A stretch of DNA of 64,000 nt from an uncultured Chitinophagaceae bacterium. Lineage in GTDB: Bacteria > Bacteroidota > Bacteroidia > Chitinophagales > Chitinophagaceae. Shown piece by piece: positions 6,455 to 45,063 of the stretch. The number at the start of each line of letters is the position of its first letter. The stretch's first letter is position 1. Location: contig CAVWGT010000002.1 of assembly GCA_963754585.1 (NCBI GenBank), positions 8,865-72,864 of the forward strand, read 5' to 3'. The notes under the pieces were generated by a model that saw only the letters and a program-made list of their open reading frames with translations, did not search any database and was not told the origin of the DNA. The position numbers were made by a program, and so were the translations under genes.

Positions 6455-9400
6455 ATGAAAGATTTACTTATACTAATCTTGATCTTTTTTTAGCTGTGCC
6501 GGTTTCTGCCACGCGCAGTACTGTACACGGACGCGTGGTGTCTCAAAAAGACGGCACCGCACTGGTAGGCGCCTCTGTAAAGATTAAGAAATCCAGCTCA
6601 GGAACGCTTACGGATGTGGATGGTACTTTTTCACTTGCCGCGGAAGGAGCAAGTCCGGTACTTATCATATCATTTATCGGCTTTGTAACCCAGGAATTTG
6701 TAGTTTCTGACCAGCAGCCCGTTTTAATCTCCATGCAGGAAGATGCCAATCAACTCAGTGAACTGGTTGTTTCAACCGGTTATGAGCAGATTCCCGCAGA
6801 GCGCTCGACCGGCTCGTTTGCCCACGGTTGACCAAAAGCTTTTAAACCGCAGGGTGAGCACGGATATTTTAAGCCGTATGGAAGATCTGGTTCCGGGTCT
6901 TAGCTTCCGGAAAGGAAAAGGAACTTACACCAACGCCATATCGATACGTGGAAGAAGCACCATCAAAGGAAATACCCAGCCGCTGATCGTTGTAGATAAT
7001 TTTCCTTTTGAAGGCGATATCAACAGCATCAATCCCAATGACATTGAAAATATTACGATCTTAAAGGATGCGGCGGCCGCTTCGATCTGGGGCGCTAGGG
7101 CAGGAAACGGTGTGATTGTCATCACCTCCAAAAAAGGGCGGGTCGCCAAGCCGTCCCTTAGTTTTAATTCCAATATCACATTCAGCGCTAAGCCCGATCT
7201 TTTCTACCGCTCGACGGATGAGCAGCTCCGAATTTATAGATGTCGAAAAGATGCTGTTTCAAAAAGGATATTATGCCAGCTCAGAAAATTCAGTGGCCAA
7301 AGCTCCCTCGACCCCAGCCGTGGAGCTTATGATTGCGGGCCGTGATGGTAAAATTACCCAGCAGCAGCTCTCTTCTGACCTGGCCGGTTTGTCCGCGCAA
7401 GACGTCAGAAATGATTTTTCAAAATATTTTTACAGGACAGCAGCAAACCAGCAGTATGCCCTCAATTTAAGCGGAGGTAGCCAGGCAAACCGCTATTTTT
7501 TCTCGGCGGGTTATGATAAGAATTTGGCTGCCGAAGTGCGTAACGGCTATGACAGGGTCACATTAAGCGCAAACAATACGTATCAAAACGAAAGCGGGCG
7601 GCTTGAATTCTCTACGGGTTTGTATTTCGCATCCGCAGATAACGGCCAATAATAACCCTGGCATAGCAGCCATCCGGTTTAATCCCTACACGGGTATTTA
7701 TCCCTATGCGCGCCTTGCTGATGCCGGTGGCAATCCACTCAGCACGGTAAATACTTACAGGCAATCTTTTGTCGATGCGGCTCAGGACAATGGTCTTTTG
7801 GATTGGCATTACAGCCCTTTGCAGGAACTGAACGTATCTGACAACAAAACCAGTACAACCCACTACCGTGCGAATGCTGCCCTTAAATACAAACTAACCG
7901 GCGCACTGCGGGCTGAGCTTTATTTTCAGTATGCCAAAGACCAGTCCTCGGCCGTGAATCTGCAAAGTCAGGATAGTTTTTATACCCGCGATTTAATCAA
8001 CAATTATACCCAGGTCTCAGCGGCAGGTGTTTTAACCCGAGCTGTTCCTTTGGGCGCTATCAAAGATTTGACAAGCGCATCGGCTGCCAACTGGAACCTT
8101 CGCGGGCAGCTGCACTACAATAAAACCTTTGGCACAAAACATGAGCTTTCAGCCCTTGCTGGCTACGAGGTCCGTGATAATCATACGCTGAGTGGCAGCT
8201 CCCGGCTATATGGATATAATCCGGATTATGCCACGGTGCAGCCGGTTGATTATATCACCAGTTTTCCGGCCTATTACTATCCAAGGCTTGTAAGAAAAAT
8301 CCCTTTCCGGGATTCTGAATCTGATCTGACCGACCGGTTTGTCTCCCAATATGCCAATGGGGCCTATACCTATGCGCAGCAGTTGACGGTTTCAGCCAGT
8401 GCCCGTTTTGACCAGTCCAATTTGATCGGGACAAGCGACAAGGGAGTTCCACTTTGGTCTTTGGGCCTTGCATGGAACCTTCATCAGCAGGGGTTTTACC
8501 ATTTTTCAGCGCTTCCATACCTGAAAGTCCGGGCGACTTACGGTTATAGTGGTAATGTCAATAAATCTGTCACCGCGCTGACAACAGCCTACGCGGGCGG
8601 GATTAACGCGGTCTCACAGCTGCCTTATTCAACGGTTGTAAATCCTCCTAATCCTGATCTTCGCTGGGAGCGTTCCCGGATGATCAACACCGGGATCGAT
8701 TTTGAATCCAAGGGTAGTATCATTTCAGGAACGGTGGAATTTTACTGGAAAAAAGGGATGGATTTGATCGGGGTAACACCCTTTGCGCCTTCAACCGGGA
8801 TCACCACCTTTACCGGAAATACAGCCGACACAAAAGGGAAGGGGCTTGATCTGACCCTGAACAGTAAAAATATACAGCGGCAGATCGCTTGGAATACCAC
8901 CCTTCTGTTGAGCTATCAGACCGAGCGGGTCACCCACTATCCGGTGCAGGCTACTGCAACCAGTTATGTGCAGTCAGCAGATGGCATTGGTGTGGTGCCC
9001 CTTGAAGGAAAACCCGTTTTAGCGGTCTATGCCTACCGCTGGGCCGGGCTGGATCCTGCGACGGGGAACCCTTTGGGATACTTAAATGGTGACATCAGCA
9101 CGGATTATCAGAAAATCATCCAGACTGCAACGCCACAGAATCTGGATTATAAAGGGCCTGCACTGCCTGTGGTATTCGGCGCACTTCGCAATACGGTAAG
9201 TTGGAAAGGCCTTTCGCTCTCTGCCAATGTATCCTTCCGGCTGGGTCACTATTTCCGCCGGGAATCCGTACGGTACGCTGATGTCCTTTCCGGCGCAGGC
9301 AGTCACGGTGACTACCGGCTGCGCTGGCAAAATCCGGGCGATGAAAAGCGTACACATGTTCCTTCCATGCCCGAATCCTCGAATGCGAACCGGGATAATT

Positions 9401-9670
9401 TCTATGCGTTCTCCTCGGCCCTGGTCGAAAAGGCAGACAATATTCGTCTGCAGGATGTTTCGCTCAGTTATGAGCTTAATAAGAACTCGGAGCCCATGGC
9501 TGCCTTTCAAGAAAGTCAATCTTTATTTGTATGCCAACAATTTGGGTATTCTATGGAAAGCCACCCAAACAGATCTGGATCCGGACTATTCCACCGTGGG
9601 TGTGACCACAGTAGTGACCACCTATCCGCCGCCGCGTTCGCTGGCAATTGGTCTAAAAATTGATATCTAA
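6455..9670 (+). CDS. susC: SusC/RagA-family TonB-dependent outer-membrane transporter, interrupted by at least 5 frame changes
   Basis: The ATG at 6455 gives [12 protein letters not shown] and then a stop inside a T7 run (6485-6491). There is a CarboxypepD_reg-like segment ([20 protein letters not shown]...TDVDGTFSL), a plug ([29 protein letters not shown]), a barrel, and the C-terminus [21 protein letters not shown]...[11 protein letters not shown]. Pieces: 6496-6831, 6743-7345, 7116-7652, 7603-9663, 9227-9670. Confidence 0.85.
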
Positions 9671-11477: not shown

Positions 11478-11912
11478 TTACTTTGGTTTATGCAAAGAGG
11501 TTGGTAATCTGTGTGTTTGCCGGATAGCCAAAAGCGTCAGGCTCAGAAAAAAAAGATTGAAAAAAAAGTGCACAGGGAAATCCATAGATTTTAAAACGCC
11601 CCCGCAGCTGCAGGGAACCCTTTCAAAAACATTGAGCAGCACAAGTCCCATGTACCCCGTGAAAAAGCTCATCAGAAGCGCTGAGCCGTACAGGCCCCAA
11701 ACCCGGCTGGATGGGACAAACAGCAAAATCACCACCAGCGTTTCTGAAAGCGGAATCAGCCAGAGCAGCCAGGGTACAGACCAGACCGGGATGGCCTGGT
11801 TAGCAAGCTCTCTTTCAAAAACTTTCAGATCAGCCCATTTCACTGCGGCCGTATACACAAAAAGAAGGATGAGTGCGGCCGTAATCAGCCGGGTAGCCAT
11901 GCTGTTTTTCAT
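11478..11912 (-). CDS. MauE/DoxX-family redox-associated membrane protein
   Basis: 144 aa with 4 hydrophobic segments. AVKWADLKVFERELANQ...VPCSCGGVLKSM is typical of the MauE family. Confidence 0.7.
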   Translation of the reverse strand: MKNSMATRLITAALILLFVYTAAVKWADLKVFERELANQAIPVWSVPWLLWLIPLSETLVVILLFVPSSRVWGLYGSALLMSFFTGYMGLVLLNVFERVPCSCGGVLKSMDFPVHFFFNLFFLSLTLLAIRQTHRLPTSLHKPK

Positions 11913-12087: not shown

Positions 12088-12648
12088 TTATGTGGGCATT
12101 CTTCGGATTTCACTCATTCGTCCCGGTGAAATTTCCAGATAGCTTGCGATGTCTTTTAAAAGAAGGCGCTGGGACGGGAAAATTTGCCGGAAATGCTCGT
12201 AGGCCAGGGCGGTAGGAAGCGAGCACAGAAATGATTTGAGCTCGCCATGATTTCGGTCATTGAGTATAATCTTGCTGGAAAGCTTGGGTGCTTCCCTAAA
12301 GGTATGGTACAGATAGATGAGGCTGCTGTCTGAAAGTGTGGTCAGGTAGCTGTCTTCTAAAAGCATGATGCTGTCCGTAGCTATTTTGTGACTGGGACCG
12401 CCGGCCAGAAGCATCACCTGATCCTCTTTCCAGAAGCGGGTGACATGTTCTTTTCCTTCCTGATCCTGATAATAGCCCTTGGCAAGACCACTTTTGATAT
12501 ACCAGATCATAGGTGTCTGGCCCTGGCGGCTAAGGATGTCCCCCTTTTTGTAGCGTTTTTGAATGAGCGCCTGATCAAGGGCAAGCCTGAAATCCTGGCT
12601 AAGCGGATAAAGTGCCGCGAAATGATCGGTGAGTTTTAAATTTTTCAT
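12088..12648 (-). CDS. Crp/Fnr-family transcriptional regulator
   Basis: 186 aa. Cyclic-nucleotide-binding-like N-terminus (KKGDILSRQGQTPMIWYIKSGLAKGYY...) and C-terminal HTH (LKDIASYLEISPGRMSEIRR). Confidence 0.8.
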   Translation of the reverse strand: MKNLKLTDHFAALYPLSQDFRLALDQALIQKRYKKGDILSRQGQTPMIWYIKSGLAKGYYQDQEGKEHVTRFWKEDQVMLLAGGPSHKIATDSIMLLEDSYLTTLSDSSLIYLYHTFREAPKLSSKIILNDRNHGELKSFLCSLPTALAYEHFRQIFPSQRLLLKDIASYLEISPGRMSEIRRMPT

Positions 12649-12668: not shown

Positions 12669-13859
12669 TCAGTATTCTTTAATCCAGTTGATCACCGATT
12701 CAAGCATTTTGATTACGGTTTGTTTGTCTTTCTCTTCAAAAGCATAGGATTTTGAGCGCATGCTTTCCCAGGAAATTTCAGCTTTCCTGGGCGTGGAAAG
12801 AAAGGGTACAATGCTTTCAAAAACCCTGCTCATCGAGCGCGCTTTTAGGATTCTGAGCGAGTCCAGCGCCCTGAGAAGCAGCCCGATCTGATCTACCGAG
12901 AGAAGGACCATGATTTTGAAGGATTCGGATGCAGGCCCAGCAGCCGCGAGATGTTCAAGCGGGATAGGGTCCGGCTGCGGTATATCTTTGAGATAGCCGA
13001 TCTCCTGGGTAAACCAGTTGGATATGAACTTTCTTATATCCGAATGTGCCGGGCTTAGTTTGATACCTGGCTTTCGGTGCATCTGATTAAACTGCTTGTA
13101 ATGCAAAAGAAGGTGGCGTATCTTTTCGTTCGGCTGCGTGATCGTATCGATTTTACCGGCCAGATACCGGGTATAATAGTCCAAAAATGGCCTGCTGTTA
13201 AAATTAAGATAAACCAAAAGTTCGAGCAGGGCATCGTTGATTTTCGGATGCTGCACGGTCAGTAGCGTTTGTTCTATTCCATAGAGTAGTTCTCTTTGAT
13301 AAAACACGGTCCGGAAACTTACCGGCTGCAGCCAACTGCTTGTATCAATGCTTAAAGAATCCAGCAGAATAGCGACCAGATTGGGGTCCGCATTTTTGGA
13401 TGTAAGCTGATGTTTTGCCTGGCTGATGCGGCTATGATGCTGCCGGGTAAATTCTGCAAGGTAGGTATGCGGTGCATGCTCGTCAAGGTCCAAGTAATCC
13501 CTGTGGCTGCTTTGAATAAAGCTCAAAAGCTCATAGACACACCCGGTGAGCTGTGCCAGCGCGTCTGCTGCCAGGGTGTTCAACGGATTGATCCGGGCTG
13601 TTGCCTGTGCTGCCTGGTCAAGCAGCAGCAGCAGGCTTTGATGGTGCTGTTTGATAAGAAGCTGTATTTTTCGTCTGCTGGAAAGTCTCAGACGCTGGCG
13701 GTTGCAAAAGCTGATGTAATTTTGTTTTTTCTCATGTATCTTCCCGGTGATCTTTTCGTACTGCGCTGTCGAGAGCGTACTTACTTCGGATTCACCGGAT
13801 TCAAGGACAATGGTGATAATGAAATCCAGCCATTCCAGTGTATTTTGCTTTTCTATCAT
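12669..13859 (-). CDS. Hypothetical 396-aa helical protein. The last ~80 aa are reminiscent of the RteC-type C-terminal winged helix (weak).
   Basis: Long intact ORF in a gene-dense same-strand block. The C-terminus FKIMVLLSVDQIGLLLRALDSLRILKARSMSRVFESIVPFL... loosely resembles RteC C-termini. No motif I can name firmly. Confidence 0.5.
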   Translation of the reverse strand: MIEKQNTLEWLDFIITIVLESGESEVSTLSTAQYEKITGKIHEKKQNYISFCNRQRLRLSSRRKIQLLIKQHHQSLLLLLDQAAQATARINPLNTLAADALAQLTGCVYELLSFIQSSHRDYLDLDEHAPHTYLAEFTRQHHSRISQAKHQLTSKNADPNLVAILLDSLSIDTSSWLQPVSFRTVFYQRELLYGIEQTLLTVQHPKINDALLELLVYLNFNSRPFLDYYTRYLAGKIDTITQPNEKIRHLLLHYKQFNQMHRKPGIKLSPAHSDIRKFISNWFTQEIGYLKDIPQPDPIPLEHLAAAGPASESFKIMVLLSVDQIGLLLRALDSLRILKARSMSRVFESIVPFLSTPRKAEISWESMRSKSYAFEEKDKQTVIKMLESVINWIKEY

Positions 13860-14026: not shown

Positions 14027-14170
14027 TTACTTTGGCGTAATGAGCGTGCAGATCATGCCACTTGTGGTGACAGAATCAGAACCGGGCTTTTCTGATTTAT
14101 TCTGCCAAATCCTGCTTTTAAAGTAATTCAGCGTTACTTCTTTGAAAACGAGTTTTTGATGCTTTTTCAT
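14027..14170 (-). CDS. Candidate RiPP (class I lanthipeptide-like) precursor peptide, 47 aa; below the ORF-track size cutoff
   Basis: My own translation: MKKHQKLVFKEVTLNYFKSRIWQNKSEKPGSDSVTTSGMICTLITPK. Lys-rich MKK..KL.F.KE..L leader-like N-terminus. The last 18 residues hold 7 Ser/Thr and 1 Cys. The same promoter motif as lanB lies 68 nt upstream, and a strong hairpin lies 23 nt downstream. Confidence 0.55.
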   Translation of the reverse strand: MKKHQKLVFKEVTLNYFKSRIWQNKSEKPGSDSVTTSGMICTLITPK

Positions 14171-14231
14171 GATCATCTTTTTGGTTTGTGAAAAATAGGA
14201 CAACCCGCAAAAGAAGCATCACCGGATGAGG

Positions 14232-14295
14232 TGTAAAAATTTATGTGACCGCAGGGTTTTAGCTTGGTTTGAATGGCCAGGATACTGATTTGAAT
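14232..14295 (-). promoter_or_regulatory. Promoter/operator region of the peptide gene: a conserved 24-mer plus two 9-bp direct repeats in 21-bp phase
   Basis: Minus strand: ATTCAAATC (14295-14287) -N12- ATTCAAACC (14274-14266) -N10- CCTGCGGTCACATAAATTTTTACA (14255-14232). The 24-mer contains a TAAATTTT element like the Bacteroidetes -7 box TAnnTTTG. Confidence 0.5.
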
Positions 14296-15438
14296 CGTGT
14301 TTTCTGCCACTGAAAATAGGGCTGAATGGCAAAGCAGCGCCAGTAAATAATCATCGGGCGAATTTTTTTTCAGCATTGCTACATGAAGTAGTGTTTTAGG
14401 CTTGGAATTAGTCGCCGTGTTGCATGTGCGCCGGAGAATTGGACCGCTTGGGATCAAAGAATCGATAACTTAAGTAATGCCGTAGCCGCTGGGGATAAAC
14501 AAGTTTTAGCGGAATGATCCCGTCACAATCGTTTAACCCAGATGTTTCTCTGAAATAGCATCCTATCCAACAAGGATAAGATGCATCCTTAAAATTTGTG
14601 GATCTTGTTAAAAGCTTTACTGTTTGTTAGCCGCTTTTAGTTGCAAGGCAGCAAAGTACTAATGAATCAAAACAATAAGGATGCTGAAAAGTTACAGAAG
14701 TTTGGCAACTAAGAAGATTGGTCCGGGGCAAAAAGGACTATTGATTCCACCGGAGTGTTGAAAGATACGGTTGGTGTGTAAAGGTAGCATCGTAGATGAT
14801 ACTATCCTGCCTGAGGCTGAAATACAGATCAAGCTTGAATGTGACCATCTTGACAGTCGTTTGACAAAACGTCATCGGGCGAGCCTGTTTCCATCGTCCG
14901 AGTTGCAATTTTTTTTTACCCATGTACAGTACTTAATGGACTGATTATCAGTGCGAAAAAAACGTTTCAGCTTAGCACGTACGAACGGTTTTTTGGACTA
15001 AAAATTTCTGCAACTAAAAGCCTAATAACTTTCCAGTACTATAGGCAACAACTTTTTATTTTTTTGGCGGCTACATGGCCATTAGGGTAAGAACTTATCG
15101 GCTGAATGCTTTTTTATGCTGATGCTAATGGCCAATCCTGTGATTGCTTGATCCAATGATTCAGAATATAGCTTCTCACAGGTAAAAAAATGATGTTTTG
15201 GTTTCTTGTCAAAGATTTTGAAAAGAAATGAAGCATTTAATATTACCACTAATTACAGGTGTGAACCGCTGACCGGGATCAAACCCTAATTAGCATTTTA
15301 AGGTTAACTACTTTTTGCCAATTATTTATATTGATCGGTTCGAATACAGATGAAATGAGCTTTTCTAATGGTGGGGGTTAGAGGATACAGGATTATTTTG
15401 AACGTACAGCGTCTTTAATACTTTGTTTTAAACTGAGA

Positions 15439-16623
15439 CTAAGGAGCTTTCAGGGGAACTGCAGGTGAAATCAGCGGCAAATCAAGCGTAATACTGAAAT
15501 GCTTCTCGTTTTCAGTTGCAGTCAGGCTATATTGGCCCTGAGCACTGATTTCAAGACGCTTTTTGATGTTGTCCAGTCCGATGCCGGAATCTCTCTGGTT
15601 TTTGGGTTTGATAAAAACGGCGGGTTTATTGTTTGCGATTATAAAAAGGAGTCTGCCTGCTTTTACACGCAGCTCGACATCGATCCAGCAGTCTTCAAAC
15701 GTTGAGTAAACCCCGTGTTTAAAAGCATTGTCTGCAAGGGTGAAAAGGACCAGCGTCGGCACAAGATGGTCGGGTGAAATCTTCCCTTTTTGCCGGACAT
15801 TGACTTTCAGACGGTCGTTAAAACGCTTGGCTTCCAGGTCCATGAAATGTAGCAGTGCATGCCATTCGCTTTGAAGCGGAATCAGTTCCTGATCCGTCTT
15901 ATAGAGTATAAAACGAAGCACGTCGCTAAGATTGATTAGATAGCCGGACGCCTTTTTGCTAACTTTCAGAAGGTCCGATAAAACAGAATTAAGTACATTG
16001 AAAACTAAGTGGGGTGCTGACTGCGTGCGCAGGATAACCAGTTCGTTTTTTAGTATGTCGGCTTCAAGCGCCCTTTGCTTGATTACAAGATCCCTTTTCT
16101 GAATCAGCTGCTGAACTCCATACTGGAACATTTTAAGACCCAGCGGAAGAAAAAGGATCTGCGTCTCAGTCACATCGTAAATCAGAAGCATTAGCCAGTC
16201 ATCAGCCTGGTTTTGACCGGGCGGCCTTAGGTACATCGTTCCAAAGTGTAGGAAATTCTCCGAAAGGCTGCCGAGCCCGTATTGCTGATCCAAAACAAAA
16301 TAGACCGATACAGTCGTAGTGTGCATCAATAGTACCATAAAAATACCACTGAGCACCATCAGGCTTCCCCCATAATACTTTTCTTTCAGATGGTTAAAGA
16401 CGCCTGCCGACAGATAATATACCGGAATAAACCTTAGGTAATACAGTGCGTAGGCAATCACCCAGCTGGTTTCATAATGAATTTTTTCCTTTGAGCCTGC
16501 AAAGTATAAAAGATGAAACACCATAAATACCAGCCAGAAAACCGCGTGGTACTTCAAGCGTCGTCTCAGCGTCTTGGGCTGCAGAAGATAGCGAAGCGGG
16601 AAATGATTGACATGTTTATCCAT
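15439..16623 (-). CDS. LytS/YehU-type sensor histidine kinase (membrane N-terminus + His_kinase + GHKL ATPase)
   Basis: About 5 hydrophobic segments in the first 170 aa. H-box region RTQSAPHLVFNVLNSV. ATPase motifs TLADNAFKHG and DSGIGLDNIKKRL. Overlaps the regulator gene by 8 nt. Confidence 0.85.
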   Translation of the reverse strand: MDKHVNHFPLRYLLQPKTLRRRLKYHAVFWLVFMVFHLLYFAGSKEKIHYETSWVIAYALYYLRFIPVYYLSAGVFNHLKEKYYGGSLMVLSGIFMVLLMHTTTVSVYFVLDQQYGLGSLSENFLHFGTMYLRPPGQNQADDWLMLLIYDVTETQILFLPLGLKMFQYGVQQLIQKRDLVIKQRALEADILKNELVILRTQSAPHLVFNVLNSVLSDLLKVSKKASGYLINLSDVLRFILYKTDQELIPLQSEWHALLHFMDLEAKRFNDRLKVNVRQKGKISPDHLVPTLVLFTLADNAFKHGVYSTFEDCWIDVELRVKAGRLLFIIANNKPAVFIKPKNQRDSGIGLDNIKKRLEISAQGQYSLTATENEKHFSITLDLPLISPAVPLKAP

Positions 16624-17454
16624 AAAGCGGCCCTAGTTTTTTTAATACCTCGCTTCTTAAATACCGTGAAACCTTGGCCTTGTGCTTGCTTTTGTTCATG
16701 ACCATTTCATTGCCAACCAACTTTTTTGCCAGCTGACCGTTGATGATATACGACCTGTGGGTTTTGATGAAAATGTGCGGTAGCTTCTCGATAAGTAGCG
16801 CAAGTGATATGCGGACCAGGTACGATCTTTCTTTGGTATATATTTCAACGTAGTTGCCTTGTCCTTTCACCATATAAAGGTGACGGTAGGCCACCGAAAG
16901 AATAATCTTGTCCACCCGGATCCACATGATTTTTTCTTCAAAAGCCGGGACCTGCCTTCGATGGGCAAGCATCTGATCCGGGCCGGGTATTTTTTATAAG
17001 GACTTGAAAAGGATGCTGCGAATCACCCAGAAAGCCTTGGTCAGGGTCTGTAAGATCCTGCTGGCGGATTTTGCCTGCTCTTAGCATCCGCACCTTGTGA
17101 ACAGCTTTCAGAAATCTTTCCATCGAGAAAGGCTTCAAAAGAAAATCAGCCACATTGTGATCAAAGCCATCTATCGCAAACCGGGCGTGGGCCGTAGTCA
17201 TAATCACTGACGCACTGATTTTTCCCGACAATACCAAGAAGCTCTAGACCAGAAATGTAAGGCATATCCACATCAAGAAAAATGATGTCAAAATCCCTGG
17301 CAGAGATCGCTTCCACGGCCCTGACTGCATTCATACAGCCTTCGGAAAATTCCAGGCCCGGAATCTTGCTGATATAAAATTTAATGGTTTGGTGTGCTGC
17401 GCTCTCATCATCCACAATGAGACACCGCAGCGGAGGTATAACCTGCTGTTTCAT
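16616..17454 (-). CDS. LytTR-family response regulator, with 2 frame changes
   Basis: Receiver (CLIVDDESAAH...DIIFLDVDMPYISGLELL; SASVIMTTAHARFAIDGFDHNVADFLLKPF) and LytTR domain (YVEIYTKERSYLVRISL...FIKTHRSYIIN) in three overlapping ORFs. The first shift maps to an A5/T5 run near 17215. Confidence 0.8.
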
Positions 17455-17534
17455 CCGAGTCAGAATTTAAATACAACAATTTTTTCTGCTGGGTTATTTT
17501 TAATTACTACGTAACGAAAGGAAGGAGATAATTG

Positions 17535-17545
17535 AATTTATGTGA
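17535..17545 (-). promoter_or_regulatory. Third copy of the TCACATAAATT core, 81 nt upstream of the LytTR regulator start
   Basis: Minus strand ...CCATTATATCACATAAATTCAATTATC... Shares the 11-mer with 14238-14248 and 20722-20732. Confidence 0.4.
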
Positions 17546-17582
17546 TATAATGGTTACATCCTACAACTTTTAGGAATATTTT

Positions 17583-20500
17583 TCAGCGGTTTTTATTTTT
17601 CGAAGTGAAGGCATAATATTTCTTTAGATAATGATAGACGGCCAGTTCCTGTTGCCGGTGACGGCAGTAAAACCAGCGGTTTAAAAATAGGTGCACCAGA
17701 TCAGCTGCCACTTTGGCTTTCACATGCTCCTCTTGCAGTGCAGGGTGGAAACTTAGTCGTTCGAGCAGGGTGGACCGCTTGCTTAGAATCAAGCTAAGCC
17801 TTTGGATGTCGGCAGATTTTTCAGCGCCCATCAGTTGAATGATCTGCTGTTTTTGCGTCCGGTAGTTTTGATCCATTTGCCTTCGAAGCAGTCCGTTGGC
17901 ATCCAGCTCGGCCGAAAACTGCCGGTGCATCGTCTGAATCAAACCGGTCCTGCCTTTCAGATCAAAGCCAAAATCAGTAAGCAGACGATCCGTGCCAAGC
18001 AGTGCTCCTTGCCAGCGGAACTGTTCGTTAGTTGCCATTTCTTTCAGACAATTTAGCACCGTGCAGCTGTCCAGGTGAAAGACGGATTCGATCTTGGCGT
18101 AGACCTGCTGCGGGAAACGTTCGAGTTCCCTTTGATAGCGGTCGGTTTGAACACGCTGAACCATACCACTTTCCAGCATAGGTTGCAAAAGCGTGTGCAG
18201 CTCCTTGATGATAAGTGACCAGAAATCATTTTTACTGCTGTAAAACCGCATGCGGATATGGGGTTCCGGATCCCGGTAACGGATAAAAAACCATTTGCTG
18301 ATGATTCGGCGTTTTTTTAGCAAAACCAGAAACGGAAACAGCGTGCCGGTCAGCAAAGTATCACAAAGCCTTTCTGTGCAATAGATTTTTATATACAGCC
18401 AGCGGGTCCCTGAGGTGAAATTACGGGTCATTCCACCTTGTTTAGTGTAAGCTGGCACCTGTGCAATAGCTGCGGCGTTGTGAGAATTTTTAAAGGGAAT
18501 CACAACTTCGTTTGCGAAATATTTGGCATCCTGCGAGATTAAGCCCTCTGAGGGCCTTTCCAGAGACTCTGTGATGCGAAGGCTGCCTTCTTTTTTTAGC
18601 ATTTGAGCCAGAAGTGCCAGTGAGTGCTCGTTTTGGCTGTCTATCAGAAGCATCTGATCGCCTTTTCCGGCAGTGAAGAACCTTGGGGTATGAATCCTTT
18701 TTTGAACACCTTGCCACCAACTGCGTTTTCTTTTGTCAGACTCCATTTCCCGCTCTCTATTTAGCAGCCAGCTGGCTTTGCTGATGATGAGCTTGTCATA
18801 CTGCACACGGGGCAGAAATGGGGCGTCTTTGTATTTTCTCCAGTCCCAGACCAGCGAAATTGAGTTCTGGCTGCCCAGATCGCAAAGAAAACGGTAAACG
18901 GGAAGGCCCATGCTAAAATTGTGTGCACTGCTCAGCACAGGCATGATCGGTTTTTTTAGCAAAGGGCTGCTCAGTATCAGGTTTTTTCCATCTGGACAGC
19001 TCAGGAAAAGATCGGCAGGGTCAATTCTTTTTTCGGGTATCTTGGTACTTTTTGTTAAATACGGGATCTCAAAGTCTCGAAGATCAGGTCTTTGGGCGAT
19101 GTTACCGGCCTTCCCGTCTGGCAAATGGGCGATCTCTGCATAAATTACTCTTTCATCCTGCGCCTGTTCGCTTTGGATCATATCTGCAACATGCCGGGTG
19201 AGCACCGGATCCTGCGCACAGAACCTTGTCAGAAGGTTGGCTGCCGAGGGGCCGTAAAGTCCTTTAAGCTCAAAAAGAAAATCGCCTTGATCCAGCGCCT
19301 GCGGTGAGTGGGTATGAACACTGCCAAACACATAGAAGCTGGAAGGCAACTGCGGAATATCCGCATTTTCGTTGGCTTTTAGAAGCGCATCGGTAAGCGC
19401 TACCTGCTGGCTTCCCATGGGAGAGGCGGTCTGATAGAGCCCTTCGGCAAGATCATTTAGATGACCGTCCCTGGCCTTTTCGTCAGATTCACTCAGGTCA
19501 ATACCTTTCAGCAGCGGCAGAGTACGCTGCGTGTTGGTGCTTAGTGTGCCGTATCCTATGCCATAATCGTAATCAAGCGCGCACAGCAGCGGAATGGACT
19601 GCTGGCCATAACGGGCGGCAAAACGGCGGGTAAAATCTTGCAGATCCTGACTGTCCGTCTGACTGGAGAGCATGCCGATACGGCTAAGCATAGCCCCGAG
19701 CTTGGAAAGGAACTTATGGCTGAATGTAGCAGTATTCGCCTGGAAACCAAGTGTTGTATGAATGGTATTTTCCAAAGGATGATCCGTTTTAATCAGGTGA
19801 TTAAGCATTTTGTTGATCTGAGCCACCGGGGCGTTTTTATCAAGCTTTTTTTGGATTCGTCCTATCCTGCCTACCACCGCCTTTGTTCTCTTAAGTGTTT
19901 TGAGCGCTACTGAAAGGAGTGTAAGATAGTCCTGTCCGGTAATGTTGAGCTCGATACTGCTGACAAGAATCTGCGCTTTGATCAGCTCATTTACATATGC
20001 CTTAGCGCTTGCAGCACTTAATTTTTCATGCCTTAAAAGCGAAGTGAGTTGCAAAGGAGTGAGCCCTTTTTTCGCGCGGTCCAGTAACTTTCCAAGTGCC
20101 GGGTGAAATTCAGCCTGACTCAGTAGGGATATCGTTTGGTAAGAATCTGGCAGCCTTCTGATGTATCGGTAACTTTCCCCGACCCTGTACAGCGAGGAGC
20201 TTGGGTAAAAAAGAAGCTGGGATCGTAGATGGTCTTTTCCAAGAATATATTTCTGAATGGCGTGCTGCGCGCTGGTGTCCAGACGGCATCGTATGGCCAA
20301 AGGGTTTTGCACGCTGAAGTCAATTTGGGTGCGCGCCGCTGTTTCAAAAGTAAGGTAGCCTGCAAAAAGACCAAAAGGCGTGCATCTGCCGCAAGCGCGG
20401 ATTAAATATTTGTAAAGGCTTATAAGAAGCTTTTCTTTTCCTTTTACCGGTTTTTGGTCCACAAGAGCCCGGGTCATCTCATAAAGCGTGCCTGAGGCGA

Positions 20501-20660
20501 GCTGGATGCCTTCTAACAAAACAGGATCAGAAAAGATTTTTTGCAGCTCTGGTTCAAATCTTGAAGGATCCTTGCTGGTAAGATTGTGAAAGGATATCAG
20601 AACGTTTCTAGGCAAAAGAGGGCGCCGAAGCACACCAAAGCCGTAAGGTTGCAGTTTCAT
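17583..20660 (-). CDS. lanB: Full-length class I lanthipeptide dehydratase (LanB-type: N-terminal glutamylation domain + C-terminal elimination / SpaB_C domain)
   Basis: Intact 1025-aa ORF. N-terminal YKYLIRACGRCTPFGLFAGY is typical of Lant_dehydr_N. C-terminal RWLYIKIYC...KWFFIRYRDPEPHIRMRFY is typical of the thiopeptide-type bacteriocin biosynthesis (Lant_dehydr_C) domain. Confidence 0.85.
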   Translation of the reverse strand: MKLQPYGFGVLRRPLLPRNVLISFHNLTSKDPSRFEPELQKIFSDPVLLEGIQLASGTLYEMTRALVDQKPVKGKEKLLISLYKYLIRACGRCTPFGLFAGYLTFETAARTQIDFSVQNPLAIRCRLDTSAQHAIQKYILGKDHLRSQLLFYPSSSLYRVGESYRYIRRLPDSYQTISLLSQAEFHPALGKLLDRAKKGLTPLQLTSLLRHEKLSAASAKAYVNELIKAQILVSSIELNITGQDYLTLLSVALKTLKRTKAVVGRIGRIQKKLDKNAPVAQINKMLNHLIKTDHPLENTIHTTLGFQANTATFSHKFLSKLGAMLSRIGMLSSQTDSQDLQDFTRRFAARYGQQSIPLLCALDYDYGIGYGTLSTNTQRTLPLLKGIDLSESDEKARDGHLNDLAEGLYQTASPMGSQQVALTDALLKANENADIPQLPSSFYVFGSVHTHSPQALDQGDFLFELKGLYGPSAANLLTRFCAQDPVLTRHVADMIQSEQAQDERVIYAEIAHLPDGKAGNIAQRPDLRDFEIPYLTKSTKIPEKRIDPADLFLSCPDGKNLILSSPLLKKPIMPVLSSAHNFSMGLPVYRFLCDLGSQNSISLVWDWRKYKDAPFLPRVQYDKLIISKASWLLNREREMESDKRKRSWWQGVQKRIHTPRFFTAGKGDQMLLIDSQNEHSLALLAQMLKKEGSLRITESLERPSEGLISQDAKYFANEVVIPFKNSHNAAAIAQVPAYTKQGGMTRNFTSGTRWLYIKIYCTERLCDTLLTGTLFPFLVLLKKRRIISKWFFIRYRDPEPHIRMRFYSSKNDFWSLIIKELHTLLQPMLESGMVQRVQTDRYQRELERFPQQVYAKIESVFHLDSCTVLNCLKEMATNEQFRWQGALLGTDRLLTDFGFDLKGRTGLIQTMHRQFSAELDANGLLRRQMDQNYRTQKQQIIQLMGAEKSADIQRLSLILSKRSTLLERLSFHPALQEEHVKAKVAADLVHLFLNRWFYCRHRQQELAVYHYLKKYYAFTSKNKNR

Positions 20661-20715
20661 AAAGACGCTTTTTTAAGTATATCATTGGCTGTAAAGTTGG
20701 TCAGGCGACTCTTTT

Positions 20716-20800
20716 TGTAAAAATTTATGTGACAGCAGGTTGCTAAGGAGATTTGAGTAGCTAAAAGCAGCATGCAAAGCGCTTTCGGATGACTTTGAAA
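20716..20800 (-). promoter_or_regulatory. lanB upstream region: the conserved 24-mer plus TTCAAA-type boxes in 21-bp register
   Basis: Minus strand CCTGCTGTCACATAAATTTTTACA (20739-20716) differs at 1 of 24 nt from the copy at 14255-14232. ACTCAAATC (20758-20750) has identical spacing to the box at 14274-14266. TTTCAAAGT (20800-20792) lies exactly 42 nt further upstream. Confidence 0.5.
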
Positions 20801-21499
20801 GTTTGTTCTCATGGTTCTGATCCCACGACAGAACCGGGTGCTTAACCCTCACAACTTACCAATAGGCCGGTGTGTCCTTTGCATTAGCCGGCTTGAAGTA
20901 AAGGATGCATTTGAAGGTTGATCGTAATGAAGCTGATTCCGGCGCTGGATCGAATGTGCAGGGGCCCGGAATTGGCCGCTTAAACTTTCTTCGTTGGAGT
21001 ACTTGTAGCGGCCGAAACTAACGGAGCAGCTCTTGCGCAATAAAGGTGTTAAAAGTAGCACGGATCTAGTATGCGCGGTGCTCTTAGTGGAGAATTCGGA
21101 GCCGCGGATCACCGCAATTCGCAAATCAAGGACATGTAGTTTCGGTAGAAATTGACCATGCAAAATGATTGATTTATATTTATTTAACTCGTGAGTAATA
21201 ATAGTCTGTTGGCGGTCAATCTACCACGGAATCGCATGGTCAAGCCGTCCGAATTCTCCATTCAATGCCCTGATTTGGAAGTTATAGCACGACTGTGTCT
21301 TCACCTTCATCCCACACGCTGCTAGCTGCTTCAATATATGCTTTACCACGGTAGTAACGCTGGTGTCAATCCATCTGTCAATCCAAAGATGTATTTGACA
21401 GGTCATATTCTGGCAATACAGGCTCCTTTGTTGATCCTTCTTTATAGTTAACCTGTTTACCGAGCCGAAGCAGATTATGGAAAAACGGTAATTGGGATT

Positions 21500-22241
21500 C
21501 AAAGATTTTTGCGGTGATTGATCTATATGCATCAGCAGTAAGACTGTGTAAGGATTATCGTTGTTATCATTTAAGCTGCATTGCAGATCTGAAGCTTGCC
21601 CAGCTGAGGTGATCACCACCAGATCATAACGGTCCTTTTCTGTTTGCTCAACCGGAAAGTTTCCCAACGGGTGATAATGGGAGGGCCTGATTGTTTTCAA
21701 GTTTTTTCATGATTTCCTTTCTCAGATTTTTCTCATGATTAGGTTGACCTTCCAGTGTTATTCTATATTTGCGACTTGCTTGGATGCTGTCAGATAAGTC
21801 AGTTATCCTTCTCAGGCAGATGCTTAGTGTAGAAATCGCTTTCCGCTTTTCTTCCGGTTCTTCATTAGTGAGCACCTCAACTGGTTGATTCAGCTGTTGC
21901 ACTGCTACACCGGCCATGATTTCTCTTCTTCCAACGGCGCTGGAAATAATGAGGAGGCATGAAGATAATCCTTTGTGCGATAACCCAGGTGTTGTGCGTC
22001 CGGTTCTAAGCAACCAAGAGATGAACGCCTACCAGAACAGATCGCAGATCTTTGCGGGATTTTGAAGACACTTACTTTTCATATTGCCCGGCACACGTTT
22101 GCTGCAACCGTGATACTGAGTAACAAAGTGCCGGTTGAAACAGTTTCTAAGATGCTCGCGCATCGATCTTTGATGCAGACGATGATTTATGCCAAAATTT
22201 TGGACGTGAAGATTAGAGAAGATATGAAGGTTTTGAAGTAA
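21500..22241 (+). pseudogene. Decayed tyrosine recombinase (Bacteroidetes integrase family): many stops, frame changes and an internal deletion
   Basis: My own translation. 22026-22241: EQIADLCGILKTLTFHIARHTFAATVILSNKVPVETVSKMLAHRSLMQTMIYAKILDVKIREDMKVLK* (HxxRH box and catalytic Y). Another frame just upstream gives ISLLPTALEIMRRHEDN...VLSNQEMNAYQ, and 21880-21925 gives LIQLLHCYTGHDF. No + ORF of 60 aa or more exists here. The 5' limit is approximate. Confidence 0.7.
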
Positions 22242-22659: not shown

Positions 22660-25600
22660 TCAATATAAAATCAGCTTTCTGACCACCGTAGGGCCATCTG
22701 TGTTGACGTGGATTAGCACAACGCCGCTGGCGACTCCTGAGAGGTTTAAGGTTGCTTCTTTTGAAACCATCAGGACCCTGCCCGAAAGATCGTAGACAGT
22801 CACCTGCCCGATGGTGCTATTGGTCTGAATGTAAGCCCGGTGCGCAGCATCCGCCCACACAGTTACCGTTTGTTGAGGGTCTATAAATCTGACGGCCTGT
22901 ATGCGGGAATGTTCGGTTCTGCCGTCAAAATCAATTTGCCGTAAACGATAGTAGTTGATGCCCGGCATTGGTGTCTCATCTTGAAAAGCATAATACTTGA
23001 CCGTAGCCGTTGTGGCATTGCCGTCCACAAAACCAATGTCTTCCCAAGTAAAACCATTCGTGCTGCGCTCGATGTAAAATCCTGCATTATTTACTTCGGA
23101 AGCCGTACGCCAGTCTACTTTGATCACAGAGCCGACCGCTTTGGCATTGAACGAAATCAGGTTGACAGGCATTGGGTTGGCGTAACTGAGTTTCACAGCG
23201 TTGGACTCGTAAACGATGTTCCAGCCAGCGGGCATGCCCGTTACAGTGCTAAACGTACCGGCTATTGATGTGGCGTTGATGATCGTCATTTCGTCACCGG
23301 TTGTCGGTGTATAATTGAGGGTAAGAGCCAGCGTGCCACCCAGCGTGGCAGCTCCGGTAACGTCTATTCTGTCGTACTGGGTGCTACCAGCGCCATTGAG
23401 CTCTATATCCATGACGCTATTGCTGAAATCCTTGCTGCCGTTGAAAATTAGATCGCCCGGCGAATAACCGGGTGAGAGCACGCCTCCTGCATTCGTACAC
23501 GAAGCTGCAATTACCTGGCCCGAACCTTTGAAAACGCCGTCAGTGTTGTTGTTAAAAACACCCGATCCCTGCTGTGTAAGCAGGTTGGCAATCGGAGTGA
23601 CACCACCAATCGTTACTTTTCCGCCATTGTTAAGTGTGTTGTTTTCCAGAAAAATCCCTTCCTCCGCATGATCGACCCGGATATCTCCGCCCGTATTGTT
23701 GGAGAATGCAGTCTGGTTACGGATTCCGTAAGTTCCGGCACCGGCCACCGCGCCGATGGTAATCGTTGCCGCATTGGTAAAGGTCCCGTTGAAATTGCGC
23801 AGGGCAGCCAGCGTTGTACGGTCGATGCGGATATCGCCACCGGAATTGTTGACGAACTCGCTTGCATTGAAGATCCCGTGAACGCCCGAATTGGCATTCG
23901 CGCCAATGGTAATTGAGGCAGCATTCGTGAAGCTGCCTTTGAACTGATAAATGCCGGTGTCGCTTGTGCGGTCGATACGGATATCGCCACCAGTTTTGTT
24001 TACCAAAAACGACACGTTCAGGATACCATAAGTACCGGCATCAGCCACCGATCCGATCGTCAGAATGGCCTCATTCGTGAAGGTGCCGTTGAAAAGGCGT
24101 ACTCCGGCGAGCGAAGTATGATCAATCCTTATATTCCCTCCCGCATTGTTATTGAAAATGGTTTCGTTGAAAATACCATGAAGACCTACATTCGCGTTCG
24201 CCCCAATTGTGATGTCGGCTGCGTTGGTGAACGTGCCTTTCAGCTGATAGATCCCTGTGTCGGTCGTACGGTCAATACGGATATGGCCACCGGGGTTATT
24301 ATTAAAATCCATCTGGTTTGAAATTCCGTAGATACCGGCGTCTGCCACCGAGCCTATTGTAATTTCGGATTCGTTGACAAAAGTACCCCCAAGGTGCGCG
24401 ATAGCAATGCTGCCGGAACGATCAATGAAAATTCTTCCTGCTGGGGCGTTGTAGAAATTGCCCGTTCCTCCGGTCTGAATCCCGTAGTTCCCTGCCGACG
24501 CCGAAGCCCCGATGGTAATGTCGGCTTTGTTGATAAAAGAGGATTTGGAAAAAATAGCCGCCTCAGTCGATTGATCGATCCTGATATTTCCGCCAGCATT
24601 ATTGGTGAATTGGCCTTTCAGGTCGATCCCGTACTTTCCAACAGAAGCCAACGCTCCAATCGTGATTTTCGAGGCATTGATAAAAGTAGAGGCATTATCG
24701 ATGGCTGTCATGTTTGTCCTGTCAATGCTGATCGAACCGCCTGTATTGTTGTTGAAGGTTGCCTGTACCCTCATTCCATAATCTCCGCCGGAGACTGCTT
24801 CACCGATGACGATCTTCCCCAAATTACTGAATGTGCCTCCCTGATGCCACAACCCGGTGGGAAGCCCCGACGCGAGCCCACCGACCCGGTCGATCCGGAT
24901 CACAGCTCCATTGTTATTGGTAAACGAACCGCTCGCTATAAGCCCGAATCGCCCTACTGCATCCGAACCACCAATTGTGATTGTACCGTCATTGGTGGTA
25001 GTGCCGCTTGTTTCTAATCCCTGATTGCCGGTCCGGTCTATCGATATCGTTCCTGTGTTTACCAACGTTGCATTCGCATTACGCAAACCCGTTGTGCCCG
25101 GTTTCCCCACGGCACCGAGCGTGATGGTGCCGTTGTTTGTTAGGGTACTGGCTCCAATATTGATTCCAAGGTCGGTCACGCGGTCAATTTCCAAGGTCGC
25201 GCCAATGGCGTTGGTGAAAGTGCCCCGTGAATCCAGACCTATTTGGCCTGCCGCGGCCAGTGAACCGATGGTGATATTTGCTGCATTCGTGAAGGAATCT
25301 TTATCATTGTAAACGGCAGTTTTCGTGGTATTGTCAACCTGGATATCACCATCGGCGTTGTTATCAAATTCCCCAATGTTATAGATTCCGTACATCCCCG
25401 CACCCGCCATTGCCCCGATGATGATCACCGCAGCATTGGTGAAGGTCGCGTGTATAGACTTTATCTGGTCGAGATTGTTCACCAGGGCTTTGGTCGAAAA
25501 ACGGTCGATACTAATCGTTCCGCCATTAATGTTGTTAAATACGGCATCGTTCCAGATCCCGTGAAGCCCGATGGCCGTATTACCTCCGATTGTGATGGAC

Positions 25601-26142
25601 GCGTGATTGGTAAACGTACCGGATGCGTTGTAAAGGCCGGTATCTGAGGTATTGTCGATGAGGATCGTGGCCCCCGGCATATTATCGAATACGCCCTGAT
25701 TGATGATCGCGTAACTCCCCACACCGCTGCTCGTACCCAAAATTAGCTGACCGTTATTGCTCACTGTACCTTTATTATTCAGCCCAGCCGTAAATTCGAA
25801 AGGTACTGCATACGTAGCTGATCCGTTGATTGTAAGTATTGCTCCTGCACTGATAGACAGAGAACTCTCCGATGCTACATGCACAGCATATGCAACCACG
25901 CTCTGGCCATTTCCGATGACCGGGTCGTTGGTCGACACATTTGGAATAATTGCTTTGGTTGAAATATCCGGCACGCCGTTTGACCAGTTTGCGGCATTGT
26001 TCCAGTTTGTATTGGCACTGCCCGTCCAGGTTGTTTGTGCGCATGCTGCAGGGATTGCTGCCATAAATATGGCCAGTAGCAGGGACACCCTTTGTAAAAA
26101 TGTCCCGAGAAAAACGGACGATGCTTGTATCGTTCTTGTCAT
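22660..26142 (-). CDS. 1160-aa secreted repeat protein (about 14 x 50-aa units, beta-helix-like) with a T9SS type A C-terminal sorting domain
   Basis: Signal/anchor LLLAIFMAAIPAACAQ. Repeating unit FTNAxxITIGxxAxxGxxGIxNxxxFNNNxGGxIRIDRTxxxxIxxxxGT. C-terminus VTVYDLSGRVLMVSKEATLNLSGVASGVVLIHVNTDGPTVVRKLILY. Confidence 0.85.
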   Translation of the reverse strand: MTRTIQASSVFLGTFLQRVSLLLAIFMAAIPAACAQTTWTGSANTNWNNAANWSNGVPDISTKAIIPNVSTNDPVIGNGQSVVAYAVHVASESSLSISAGAILTINGSATYAVPFEFTAGLNNKGTVSNNGQLILGTSSGVGSYAIINQGVFDNMPGATILIDNTSDTGLYNASGTFTNHASITIGGNTAIGLHGIWNDAVFNNINGGTISIDRFSTKALVNNLDQIKSIHATFTNAAVIIIGAMAGAGMYGIYNIGEFDNNADGDIQVDNTTKTAVYNDKDSFTNAANITIGSLAAAGQIGLDSRGTFTNAIGATLEIDRVTDLGINIGASTLTNNGTITLGAVGKPGTTGLRNANATLVNTGTISIDRTGNQGLETSGTTTNDGTITIGGSDAVGRFGLIASGSFTNNNGAVIRIDRVGGLASGLPTGLWHQGGTFSNLGKIVIGEAVSGGDYGMRVQATFNNNTGGSISIDRTNMTAIDNASTFINASKITIGALASVGKYGIDLKGQFTNNAGGNIRIDQSTEAAIFSKSSFINKADITIGASASAGNYGIQTGGTGNFYNAPAGRIFIDRSGSIAIAHLGGTFVNESEITIGSVADAGIYGISNQMDFNNNPGGHIRIDRTTDTGIYQLKGTFTNAADITIGANANVGLHGIFNETIFNNNAGGNIRIDHTSLAGVRLFNGTFTNEAILTIGSVADAGTYGILNVSFLVNKTGGDIRIDRTSDTGIYQFKGSFTNAASITIGANANSGVHGIFNASEFVNNSGGDIRIDRTTLAALRNFNGTFTNAATITIGAVAGAGTYGIRNQTAFSNNTGGDIRVDHAEEGIFLENNTLNNGGKVTIGGVTPIANLLTQQGSGVFNNNTDGVFKGSGQVIAASCTNAGGVLSPGYSPGDLIFNGSKDFSNSVMDIELNGAGSTQYDRIDVTGAATLGGTLALTLNYTPTTGDEMTIINATSIAGTFSTVTGMPAGWNIVYESNAVKLSYANPMPVNLISFNAKAVGSVIKVDWRTASEVNNAGFYIERSTNGFTWEDIGFVDGNATTATVKYYAFQDETPMPGINYYRLRQIDFDGRTEHSRIQAVRFIDPQQTVTVWADAAHRAYIQTNSTIGQVTVYDLSGRVLMVSKEATLNLSGVASGVVLIHVNTDGPTVVRKLILY
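23650..25760 (-). repeat. In-frame 150-nt tandem coding repeats inside the T9SS protein gene
   Basis: 50-aa periodicity read from the translation. The C-proximal units are near-identical in pairs (GSVADAG[IT]YGI...GG[HD]IRIDRT[TS]DTGIYQ[LF]KG[TS]FTNAA[DS]ITIGANAN). Confidence 0.75.
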
Positions 26143-27990: not shown

Positions 27991-27995
27991 AACGT

Positions 27996-38186: not shown

Positions 38187-38197
38187 AGGTATTTGGT

Positions 38198-45061: not shown

Positions 45062-45063
45062 CG

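Follow-up and report, generated by a model that had tools for sequence, protein, structure and literature searches.

A putative mobile-element-borne variant of class I lanthipeptide biosynthesis without a canonical cyclase in Bacteroidota

Introduction

Class I lanthipeptide clusters of Bacteroidota, such as those of the pinensins of Chitinophaga pinensis and of PedA15 of Pedobacter lusitanus, combine a two-domain LanB dehydratase with a short precursor that has a Ser/Thr/Cys core and a leader similar to LxLxKx5L, the leader motif of Bacteroidetes class I precursors (PMC7268733), and in many of these loci a LytTR regulator and a kinase lie near LanB. Here we describe a locus with all of these features in a stretch of 64,000 nucleotides from an uncultured Chitinophagaceae bacterium (assembly GCA_963754585.1, contig CAVWGT010000002.1, positions 8,865 to 72,864), referred to below as the window. 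Its lanB gene, a LytTR response regulator gene, a membrane histidine kinase gene and a precursor gene (lanA) probably constitute a peptide-modification module borne by a mobile element, and this module is best read as an unrecognised variant of class I lanthipeptide biosynthesis, without a canonical cyclase, exporter or protease. Unlike the Bacteroidota class I clusters, it has no LanC with a zinc site, no LanT exporter of the C39 peptidase-ATP-binding cassette (C39-ABC) type and no GG cleavage motif; moreover, its core contains one Cys, its LanB has Thr at the position of NisB D299, and it is carried by mobile DNA of Dyadobacter-like bacteria.

The predicted core of the precursor, VTTSGMICT, resembles the nisin segment ITSISLCT, with Ser and Cys at i,i+4 as in nisin ring A. 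However, it has no second Cys, hence no ring B and no lipid II cage, the module contains no NisC, NisT or NisP, and its regulator is of the LytTR type, whereas NisR is an OmpR-type regulator. Thioether ring formation that needs no dedicated cyclase, be it spontaneous or of undefined mechanism, has been reported for class Va lanthipeptides such as cacaoidin, lexapeptide and pristinin A3 (reviewed in PMC12328550), but class Va dehydrates via a kinase/lyase-type complex (LanK, LanY and LanX), whereas the module described here has a tRNA-dependent LanB. Zinc ligands are missing from the cyclase domains of class III LanKC enzymes (PMC7268733), as they are from the sister-clade LanC-like proteins described below, but the LanKC domains occur fused to a lyase and a kinase domain instead of as separate partners of LanB. 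We found no literature description of peptides with a TTSGxxC core, of LanC-like proteins without zinc ligands or of the paired promoters reported below.

In its regulatory part the module is similar to the Agr, ComCDE and plantaricin/Blp circuits, which likewise comprise a membrane kinase, a LytTR regulator, a small peptide gene and repeats of 9-10 bp phased at about 21 bp. It differs from them in that the kinase is of the LytS/YehU type (PF06580), neither AgrB nor a C39-ABC protein is present, and the peptide would be modified by LanB. To our knowledge, LytTR-regulated peptide circuits have not been described in Bacteroidota.

Gene organisation and conservation of the module

The module and its downstream neighbours occupy the minus strand from 20.7 down to 11.4 kb, in the order lanB, regulator, kinase, spacer, peptide gene, 396-aa gene, Crp-like gene and MauE-family gene (Table 1). 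For comparison, 82 LanB loci were taken from species-representative genomes, all of their open reading frames (ORFs) were clustered, and the cluster representatives were annotated. A cluster of about 400 aa, present in 49 loci, corresponds to LanC (LANC_like, 4.3e-25 for one representative), and another, of about 734 aa, to the C39-ABC exporter LanT. In the LanB neighbourhoods of the 83 sequence sources (the 82 loci plus the window), regulator homologues were found in 44 and kinase homologues in 40. The order LanB-regulator-kinase is kept in at least 25 loci, and in the roughly 20 that were checked the kinase is followed by a small gene whose core is of the TTSGxxC type. The four genes co-occur as a unit in loci of Dyadobacter, Rhabdobacter and Telluribacter; an earlier prediction, made from the sequence of the window without database searches and referred to below as the original prediction, had set precisely this co-occurrence of the peptide ORF and the LytTR/kinase pair with LanB as a check.

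The nearest named LanBs come from Dyadobacter: D. diqingensis (59% identity), Dyadobacter sp. CY356 (57%), D. psychrotolerans (56%), D. koreensis (52%) and D. luteus (50%). A neighbour-joining tree built from 75 LanBs places the window in a monophyletic clade of 12 loci that lack LanC (the window, L001-L005, L008, L013, L022, L036, L040 and L049), next to a sister clade consisting of L007, L009, L010, L011, L014, L031, L042, L045 and L067.

Other parts of the tree contain additional LanBs without LanC. Those of Sphingobacterium and Parapedobacter (L041, L043, L051, L058 and L070) form a separate LanC-less clade with another layout, in which an ORF of about 130 aa with similarity to the regulator family only immediately precedes lanB, and a convergent pair of LytTR regulator and kinase genes comes immediately after it. 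A third clade of full-length LanBs (L050, L059, L068, L073 and L077, from Arcicella and relatives) has no LanC, LanT, regulator or kinase within 10 kb. The 7.9-kb contig L049 is labelled Nostocales cyanobacterium LEGE 12452, and its LanB is nearest in the tree to that of Dyadobacter beijingensis (L036); it is probably a Bacteroidota contamination of the cyanobacterial assembly. A cluster with both LanB and LanC was reported in another Dyadobacter in a species description of 2025 (PMC12584681).

Table 1. Features of the lanB module and of its surroundings (positions within the window)
Feature	Coordinates	Strand	Description
lanB	17583..20660	-	Full-length class I-type dehydratase, 1025 aa; both Pfam LanB domains
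lanB promoter region	20661..20800	-	Boxes TTTCAAAGTC (20791-20800) and ACTCAAATCT (20749-20758); 18-mer GTCACATAAATTTTTACA (20716-20733)
lanA-like precursor gene	14027..14170	-	47 aa, MKKHQKLVFKEVTLNYFKSRIWQNKSEKPGSDSVTTSGMICTLITPK
lanA promoter region	14171..14310	-	Direct repeats ATTCAAATCA-N11-ATTCAAACCA (14265-14295); 18-mer GTCACATAAATTTTTACA (14232-14249)
LytTR response regulator	16616..17454	-	Two +1 frameshifts break the gene, near positions 17222 and 16985
Membrane histidine kinase	15439..16623	-	394 aa, intact; LytS/YehU-type His_kinase, PF06580, 2.5e-13
Non-coding spacer	14311..15438	.	No detectable homology; variable insertion site in relatives
396-aa conserved protein ('cl7')	12669..13859	-	Mobile-element backbone gene; context only
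Crp-like gene	12088..12648	-	186 aa; weak cNMP_binding match, 7.6e-6; context only
MauE-family membrane protein	11478..11912	-	MauE, 1.1e-28; context only
Tyrosine integrase C-terminal fragment	22062..22241	+	59 aa, pseudogene remnant; Phage_integrase, 1.5e-7, model positions 126-168 of 172

The LanB dehydratase

The original prediction of an intact ORF carrying both LanB halves is borne out by Pfam, whose models Lant_dehydr_N (PF04738, 4.6e-115) and Lant_dehydr_C (PF14028, 1.5e-57) match residues 45-684 and 754-1016, respectively. The top matches among solved structures are MadB (9g04, 5.2e-47) and then NisB (2e-25), and homology to MibB was detected too. A match to the NCBIfam model 'thiopep_ocin' merely reflects the C-terminal LanB domain. 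The protein is a single polypeptide and not a split LanB, and a Pfam search of the larger ORFs between about 11 and 27 kb revealed neither a YcaO cyclodehydratase nor a [4+2] cyclase. PEARLs, which are LanB relatives that add amino acids from aminoacyl-tRNA, have no elimination domain, whereas the window LanB has a full one.

The residues reported as essential in LanB enzymes are, in NisB numbering, R83, R87, T89, D121, D299 and R464, together with R786, R826 and H961 (PMC12241602), and the window LanB was examined at these positions by mapping onto MadB (PDB 9g04). Eight of the nine are kept, namely R88, R92, T94, D128 and R479 in the glutamylation domain and all three of the elimination domain (R805, R848 and H990). 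The remaining position, D299 in NisB and D308 in MadB, is occupied by Thr303. Of the 75 LanBs, 67 have Asp in this column; every one of the seven LanBs in the window's subclade has Thr, L013 has Asn, and the other eight positions are essentially invariant. The exchange of Asp for Thr is notable, but it is no proof of inactivity, because the NisB D299A variant, inactive in vitro, nevertheless dehydrated nisin nearly fully in vivo (PMC4341554). Judging from a ratio of nonsynonymous to synonymous substitution rates (dN/dS) of 0.13-0.26 against relatives, lanB is under purifying selection within the subclade.

The precursor peptide

The proposed lanA has 47 codons and starts with MKKHQKL; the mechanical ORF list extends its start to a TTG codon at 14203. 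Its orthologues in L002, L003, L004, L005 and L089 are 62-80% identical, the pairwise dN/dS is 0.06-0.24, and within the core TTSGMICTL the amino acids are invariant, with one to three (mostly two or three) different codons per site. The 47-aa ORF with a leader-like start, first noticed in the original prediction, is by these measures a real, conserved gene under purifying selection. Its orthologues bear the NCBI label 'hypothetical protein', Pfam and NCBIfam gave no match for the 47-aa peptide, and a phmmer search of 1.84 billion representative proteins returned two representatives only, therefore the close peptide family is narrow.

A gene of 40-55 aa is located directly 3' of the kinase in nearly every locus of the LanC-less and sister clades. 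The family core reads TTSG(T/M)(T/I)C or (E/D)TTxSxxxCRT(I/V)(L/M)(I/M), the window type being (V/I)TTSGMIC-TLI, and the one Cys is conserved throughout. Leaders of the sister clade, e.g. KLQLVRFTVARLN, fit the LxLxKx5L motif, and the window peptide likewise consists of a leader, of the type seen in Bacteroidota class I precursors, followed by a Ser/Thr/Cys core.

The distal position ascribed to the peptide gene in the original prediction applies to this subclade, but not to the relatives in which the gene directly follows the kinase. The AT-rich spacer of about 1.3 kb was described correctly: 1.27 kb separate the kinase stop from the peptide ATG, with no credible ORFs and a GC content of about 0.41 versus about 0.46 for the window. 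Between 14.3 and 15.4 kb neither blastx nor blastn gave a match to any related locus, and the region upstream of lanB (20.9-22.7 kb) showed no homology to related loci except for a short repeat in L013. Transposon-like terminal repeats were found in neither region, and the short repeats of the spacer are at chance level. In relatives the interval between kinase and peptide gene ranges from 0.9 to 5.6 kb and contains arsenic-resistance genes in L002 (D. psychrotolerans) and an unrelated gene in L089. This interval is an insertion hot spot, and therefore the peptide gene looks distal in the window.

In Dyadobacter sp. CY356 (L001) an insertion sequence element (15901-17093; rve transposase and HTH_Tnp_1) is present about 0.7 kb downstream of the kinase, at the expected site of the peptide gene. 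No peptide homologue was found in this locus, and the 396-aa gene is located elsewhere on the same contig.

Paired promoters and the regulatory pair

The 18-mer GTCACATAAATTTTTACA occurs in two exact copies in the window, located 62 and 56 bp upstream from the ATG codons of the peptide gene and lanB, respectively, where the chance expectation, with three mismatches allowed, is 0.08. A 46-nt direct repeat of 76% identity spans both promoter sites and is the sole repeat of at least 18 nt between 11 and 23 kb. In the peptide promoter the starts of ATTCAAATCA and ATTCAAACCA are 21 bp apart, and such a pair (ATTCAAAyCA-N11-ATTCAAAyCA) is unique in the window (chance expectation 0.06). The lanB boxes TTTCAAAGTC and ACTCAAATCT are 42 bp apart, and the proximal box is 15 bp from the 18-mer, as in the peptide promoter. 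When both promoter types were aligned across five genomes, one common, conserved architecture was seen, and in the sister clade an analogous pair, TTGGTCGAA-N12-TTGGTATAA, is present upstream of both lanB and the peptide gene. On the strength of these alignments, the two promoters are regarded as paralogous (duplicated), and co-regulation of lanB and the peptide gene is well supported.

Direct repeats of 9-10 bp with a phasing of about 21 bp are the classic layout of LytTR sites. By analogy, we infer that both promoters may be controlled by the LytTR regulator encoded in the module.

The upper boundary of the locus in the original prediction was set by a 51-aa ORF (20657-20812), which has to be abandoned, as it overlaps the conserved lanB promoter. 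This ORF was also ruled out as an alternative precursor: it spans the promoter and has no counterpart upstream of lanB in two relatives. A scan for sigma-70 promoters and terminators, with a model ill-suited to Bacteroidota, gave chance-level hits only, and tRNA and Rfam scans of the window found nothing.

The regulator had been taken for a single LytTR ORF, but in fact two +1 insertions spread it over three ORFs, each in a different frame: receiver positions 2-63 are encoded at 17161-17454, receiver positions 71-110 at 16938-17237 and the LytTR domain at 16616-16972. DNA comparison with orthologues attributes the frameshifts to the expansion of A4 to A5 near 17222 and to an extra G near 16985, and tblastn with intact orthologues matched all three frames at 60-90% identity. 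In the orthologous loci examined, the regulator is uninterrupted. The kinase of the window, itself intact, carries the PF06580 domain, as expected of the predicted LytS-type protein, and it aligns in a single frame to its closest relative (L003; residues 2-382 of 384, 64% identity). A hydropathy scan shows two clear hydrophobic segments, and by reading there are three to four in the N-terminal part of about 165 aa. The circuit in this window is probably inactive, unless the regulator frameshifts are assembly errors.

Absence of a canonical cyclase, exporter and protease

The lack of LanC near LanB, claimed in the original prediction, could be extended to the whole 64 kb: a hidden Markov model (HMM) built from 54 LanCs of related loci and run against the six-frame translation gave a best E-value of 0.099, and tblastn one of 0.013. 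In the 12 loci of the LanC-less clade there is no LanC within 10 kb and no LanC remnant, and LanC pseudogene remnants were found neither upstream of lanB nor elsewhere. The claim that a C39 protease and a dedicated ABC exporter are missing holds for the whole 64 kb as well. The only ABC transporter of the window (975-2609) was ruled out as LanT, as it has no C39 domain and is 24-35% identical over the ABC part only. Neither the module of the window nor the 10 kb around the clade loci examined contain a C39-ABC, AgrB-like or protease gene.

In the sister clade, whose LanBs are 33-37% identical, a LanC-like gene is divergently adjacent to lanB. When aligned with canonical Bacteroidota LanCs, which show LAHG, WCYGD and CHGS, the encoded proteins lack the His of GxAHG, the Cys of WCxG and the Cys-His of CHG, residues that serve NisC as its catalytic acid/base and as its zinc ligands. 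This zinc-ligand pattern has been described (PMC10352776). The original prediction held that a LanC adjacent to lanB in syntenic genomes would make the cluster an ordinary one. None adjoins lanB in the 12 closest loci, whereas in the sister clade a LanC-like gene does, but it does not make the cluster ordinary, because the active-site residues are missing. The lineage appears, from these alignments, to have dispensed with canonical cyclase chemistry, and presumably the active site was lost first and the gene later.

The 396-aa gene next to the peptide gene was considered as a substitute cyclase and ruled out, as it is widespread in LanB-less elements and its product has no fold match in the PDB, including LanC structures. 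In Hymenobacter perfusus (L069, 4247-5458) two tandem LanCs are present; one has all catalytic motifs, while the other, in which the His and the first Cys are retained but CHG is replaced by IYG, looks like a partly degenerate paralogue.

Possible product and role of the module

Based on homology, LanB would glutamylate Thr and Ser residues of the core and then eliminate glutamate, giving dehydrobutyrine and dehydroalanine (Dha). The single Cys might add to one of these residues without a zinc-dependent LanC, either spontaneously or templated by LanB. Its most likely partner would be Dha37, and the resulting i,i+4 ring would be as large as ring A of nisin; a linear dehydropeptide would be the alternative product. 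The kinase/LytTR pair would activate the lanB and lanA promoters, possibly in response to the mature peptide.

A further suggestion, which we regard as quite speculative and rather improbable, is that the cyclase-free, LanB-modified peptide is itself the signal sensed by the kinase/LytTR pair, i.e. that the module is a mobile-element-borne autoinduction circuit of Bacteroidota. If so, the site of the peptide gene directly upstream of backbone genes raises the possibility that cell density is coupled to transfer of the element. If the LytTR regulator does control the paired promoters on a peptide cue, this would be a peptide-signalling circuit in a phylum in which we know of none that has been established.

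Walker et al. (2020) mined class I lanthipeptides starting from the LANC_like model (PMC7268733), and genome mining anchored on LanC would therefore miss this family, whose precursors are annotated only as hypothetical proteins. In the part of their supplement available to us no TTSGT or VARLN precursors were found. The loci form a natural series, from canonical LanC in other Bacteroidota, through LanC-like proteins without the site in the sister clade and no LanC in the window's clade, to no LanC together with a change at the D299 position, an important residue for glutamylation, in the subclade. This series might help to establish whether and how a tRNA-dependent LanB yields a defined product without a zinc cyclase, in a small system of one enzyme and one 47-aa peptide.

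The carrier element

In relatives the gene order is coupling protein, relaxase, MobC, DUF932, SSB, lanB, regulator, kinase, variable insert, peptide gene, 396-aa gene, Crp-like gene and MauE-family gene, so the same mobilisation genes are carried beside LanB. In the window, tblastn with orthologues located the relaxase/MobC/coupling-protein region at 36.2-39.9 kb (minus strand, 36207-39857), co-oriented with the lanB module, whereas the two are divergent in relatives. Of these genes, those for MobC and the relaxase look intact, whereas three frameshifts divide the coupling-protein gene among four frames. TraM, TraG and DUF4133 were found at 43.7-52.9 kb, within the minus-strand region 40000-56200: TraG is truncated to 575 aa, which cover positions 1-170 of the 413 in the P-loop model, TraM is intact, and a 351-aa ORF ends with DUF4133, a TraF-like domain. 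About 2 kb upstream of lanB contain no real genes, up to the integrase fragment. Judging from this gene content, the carrier is a CTnDOT-like conjugative or mobilisable element, in a degraded-looking state here.

The 396-aa protein is widespread in Bacteroidota and in LanB-less elements is encoded just upstream of CTnDOT-type tra genes. Since it occurs widely beside tra genes without LanB, we regard its gene as part of the element backbone and not as a cyclase gene. It gave no sequence match in Pfam, NCBIfam, PADLOC or the PDB, and its predicted structure is an all-helical bundle (mean predicted local distance difference test score, pLDDT, 78.7) with no fold match in the PDB (best E-value 0.85).

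Outside the element, at 6496-9663 on the plus strand, three consecutive ORFs of 111, 200 and 686 aa in different frames together resemble one broken SusC/TonB-dependent receptor, judging from the ORF map and the sequence. As this gene too looks broken, the assembly may be indel-prone.

Alternative explanations

Several observations weigh against the view that the locus is a cyclase-free variant of class I biosynthesis. The regulator carries a double frameshift, and the neighbouring mobile-element genes are broken (coupling protein, TraG and the integrase fragment). The assignment of the promoter repeats to the LytTR regulator rests on analogy with AgrA/ComE-type sites, and with Thr at the D299-equivalent position in the whole subclade dehydratase activity would not be guaranteed. 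No exporter or leader protease was found within 10 kb in the family loci examined, and a signal or antimicrobial would therefore lack an obvious route of release. The regulator frameshifts and the degraded element mean that the circuit of this copy may be dead, and it is a serious possibility, albeit one that we would not favour, that the module here is in decay and survives, without expression or function, only as cargo of a dead mobile element. The coupling protein in four frames, the truncated TraG, the mere 59 aa of integrase that remain upstream of lanB and the 1.1 and 1.8 kb of flanking DNA without homology to related loci all fit such decay. It is harder to reconcile with the intact state of lanB (3 kb), the kinase, the peptide gene and both promoters, which match orthologues under purifying selection, and the frameshifts may themselves be assembly errors: one regulator insertion sits in an A run, although those of the coupling protein are not in homopolymers, and the SusC-like gene also looks broken by the ORF map only. 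Even if true, decay would concern this copy alone and not the family. The main rival, which we hold to be unlikely, invokes a class I pathway of the ordinary kind, with a canonical LanC and an exporter/protease supplied in trans from other parts of the chromosome. The 64 kb seen of this genome leave room for such a LanC, which also counts against a cyclase-free reading; LanB and LanC genes that are not linked are known from Cytophagales, as Spirosoma linguale has four LanBs and five LanCs and Microscilla marina five LanBs, with only one LanB in each adjoining LanC (Marsh et al. 2010; PMC3091789), and unclustered lanthipeptide proteases are well documented (PMC8960859). However, the module resides on mobilisable DNA beside relaxase, MobC and coupling-protein genes, and it would not be portable if it depended on a LanC of the host; the linked LanC-like genes that the lineage does carry have lost their catalytic residues. 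In a weak, word-index-limited search, a Dyadobacter LanC-like protein gave named matches in D. jiangsuensis, D. soli, D. beijingensis and Dyadobacter sp. CY261, and no named match in the LanC-less species.

Two further explanations concern the enzyme and its presumed substrate. The change from Asp to Thr might have given LanB another chemistry, e.g. stable glutamylation or another aminoacyl transfer, as the existence of PEARLs, the presence of Thr in all seven LanBs of the subclade (versus Asp in 67 of the 75) and the concomitant lack of LanC could suggest. This seems improbable to us, as there is full conservation of the elimination domain, including its three essential residues, which would be pointless without elimination, NisB D299A still dehydrates nisin nearly completely in vivo, and relatives with Asp in LanB have the same peptide core. 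That the 47-aa gene encodes a backbone protein of the mobile element and not a substrate of LanB is the least credible of the alternatives, and we consider it very unlikely indeed. Its location would agree with such a role, since in the window it is the last cargo gene before a backbone gene, and in the window, L002-L005 and L089 it lies at the above-mentioned 0.9-5.6 kb from the kinase and only about 170-300 bp from the 396-aa gene. Yet in L007, L009, L010, L012, L014 and L045, all without the 396-aa gene, homologous peptides are encoded directly after the kinase, and in LanB-less elements with the 396-aa gene no small gene is called at this site, where a gap of 97-270 bp precedes the 396-aa gene; therefore, the peptide belongs with LanB and not with the backbone. 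The paralogy of its promoter with that of lanB also speaks for a LanB substrate.

Neighbouring genes

The Crp-like and MauE-family genes downstream of the 396-aa gene have the same order in L002, L089 and L090. Assignment of the 186-aa Crp-like gene to the element backbone was considered and found unsupported, as it shows no similarity to the gene at the same position in a Flavobacterium element. A PADLOC search aimed at an anti-phage defence role gave no match.

A second, intact two-component pair, unrelated to the lanB module, is encoded on the minus strand at 27247-30383 and consists of a 795-aa kinase (Reg_prop/Y_Y_Y, HisKA_2) followed by a 247-aa LytTR regulator. Another minus-strand gene (22660-26142), located between the integrase fragment and a gene for an AhpC-type peroxiredoxin, encodes a highly repetitive 1160-aa protein with many 'ITIG...G.YGI' units and a weak match to a type IX secretion C-terminal sorting domain.

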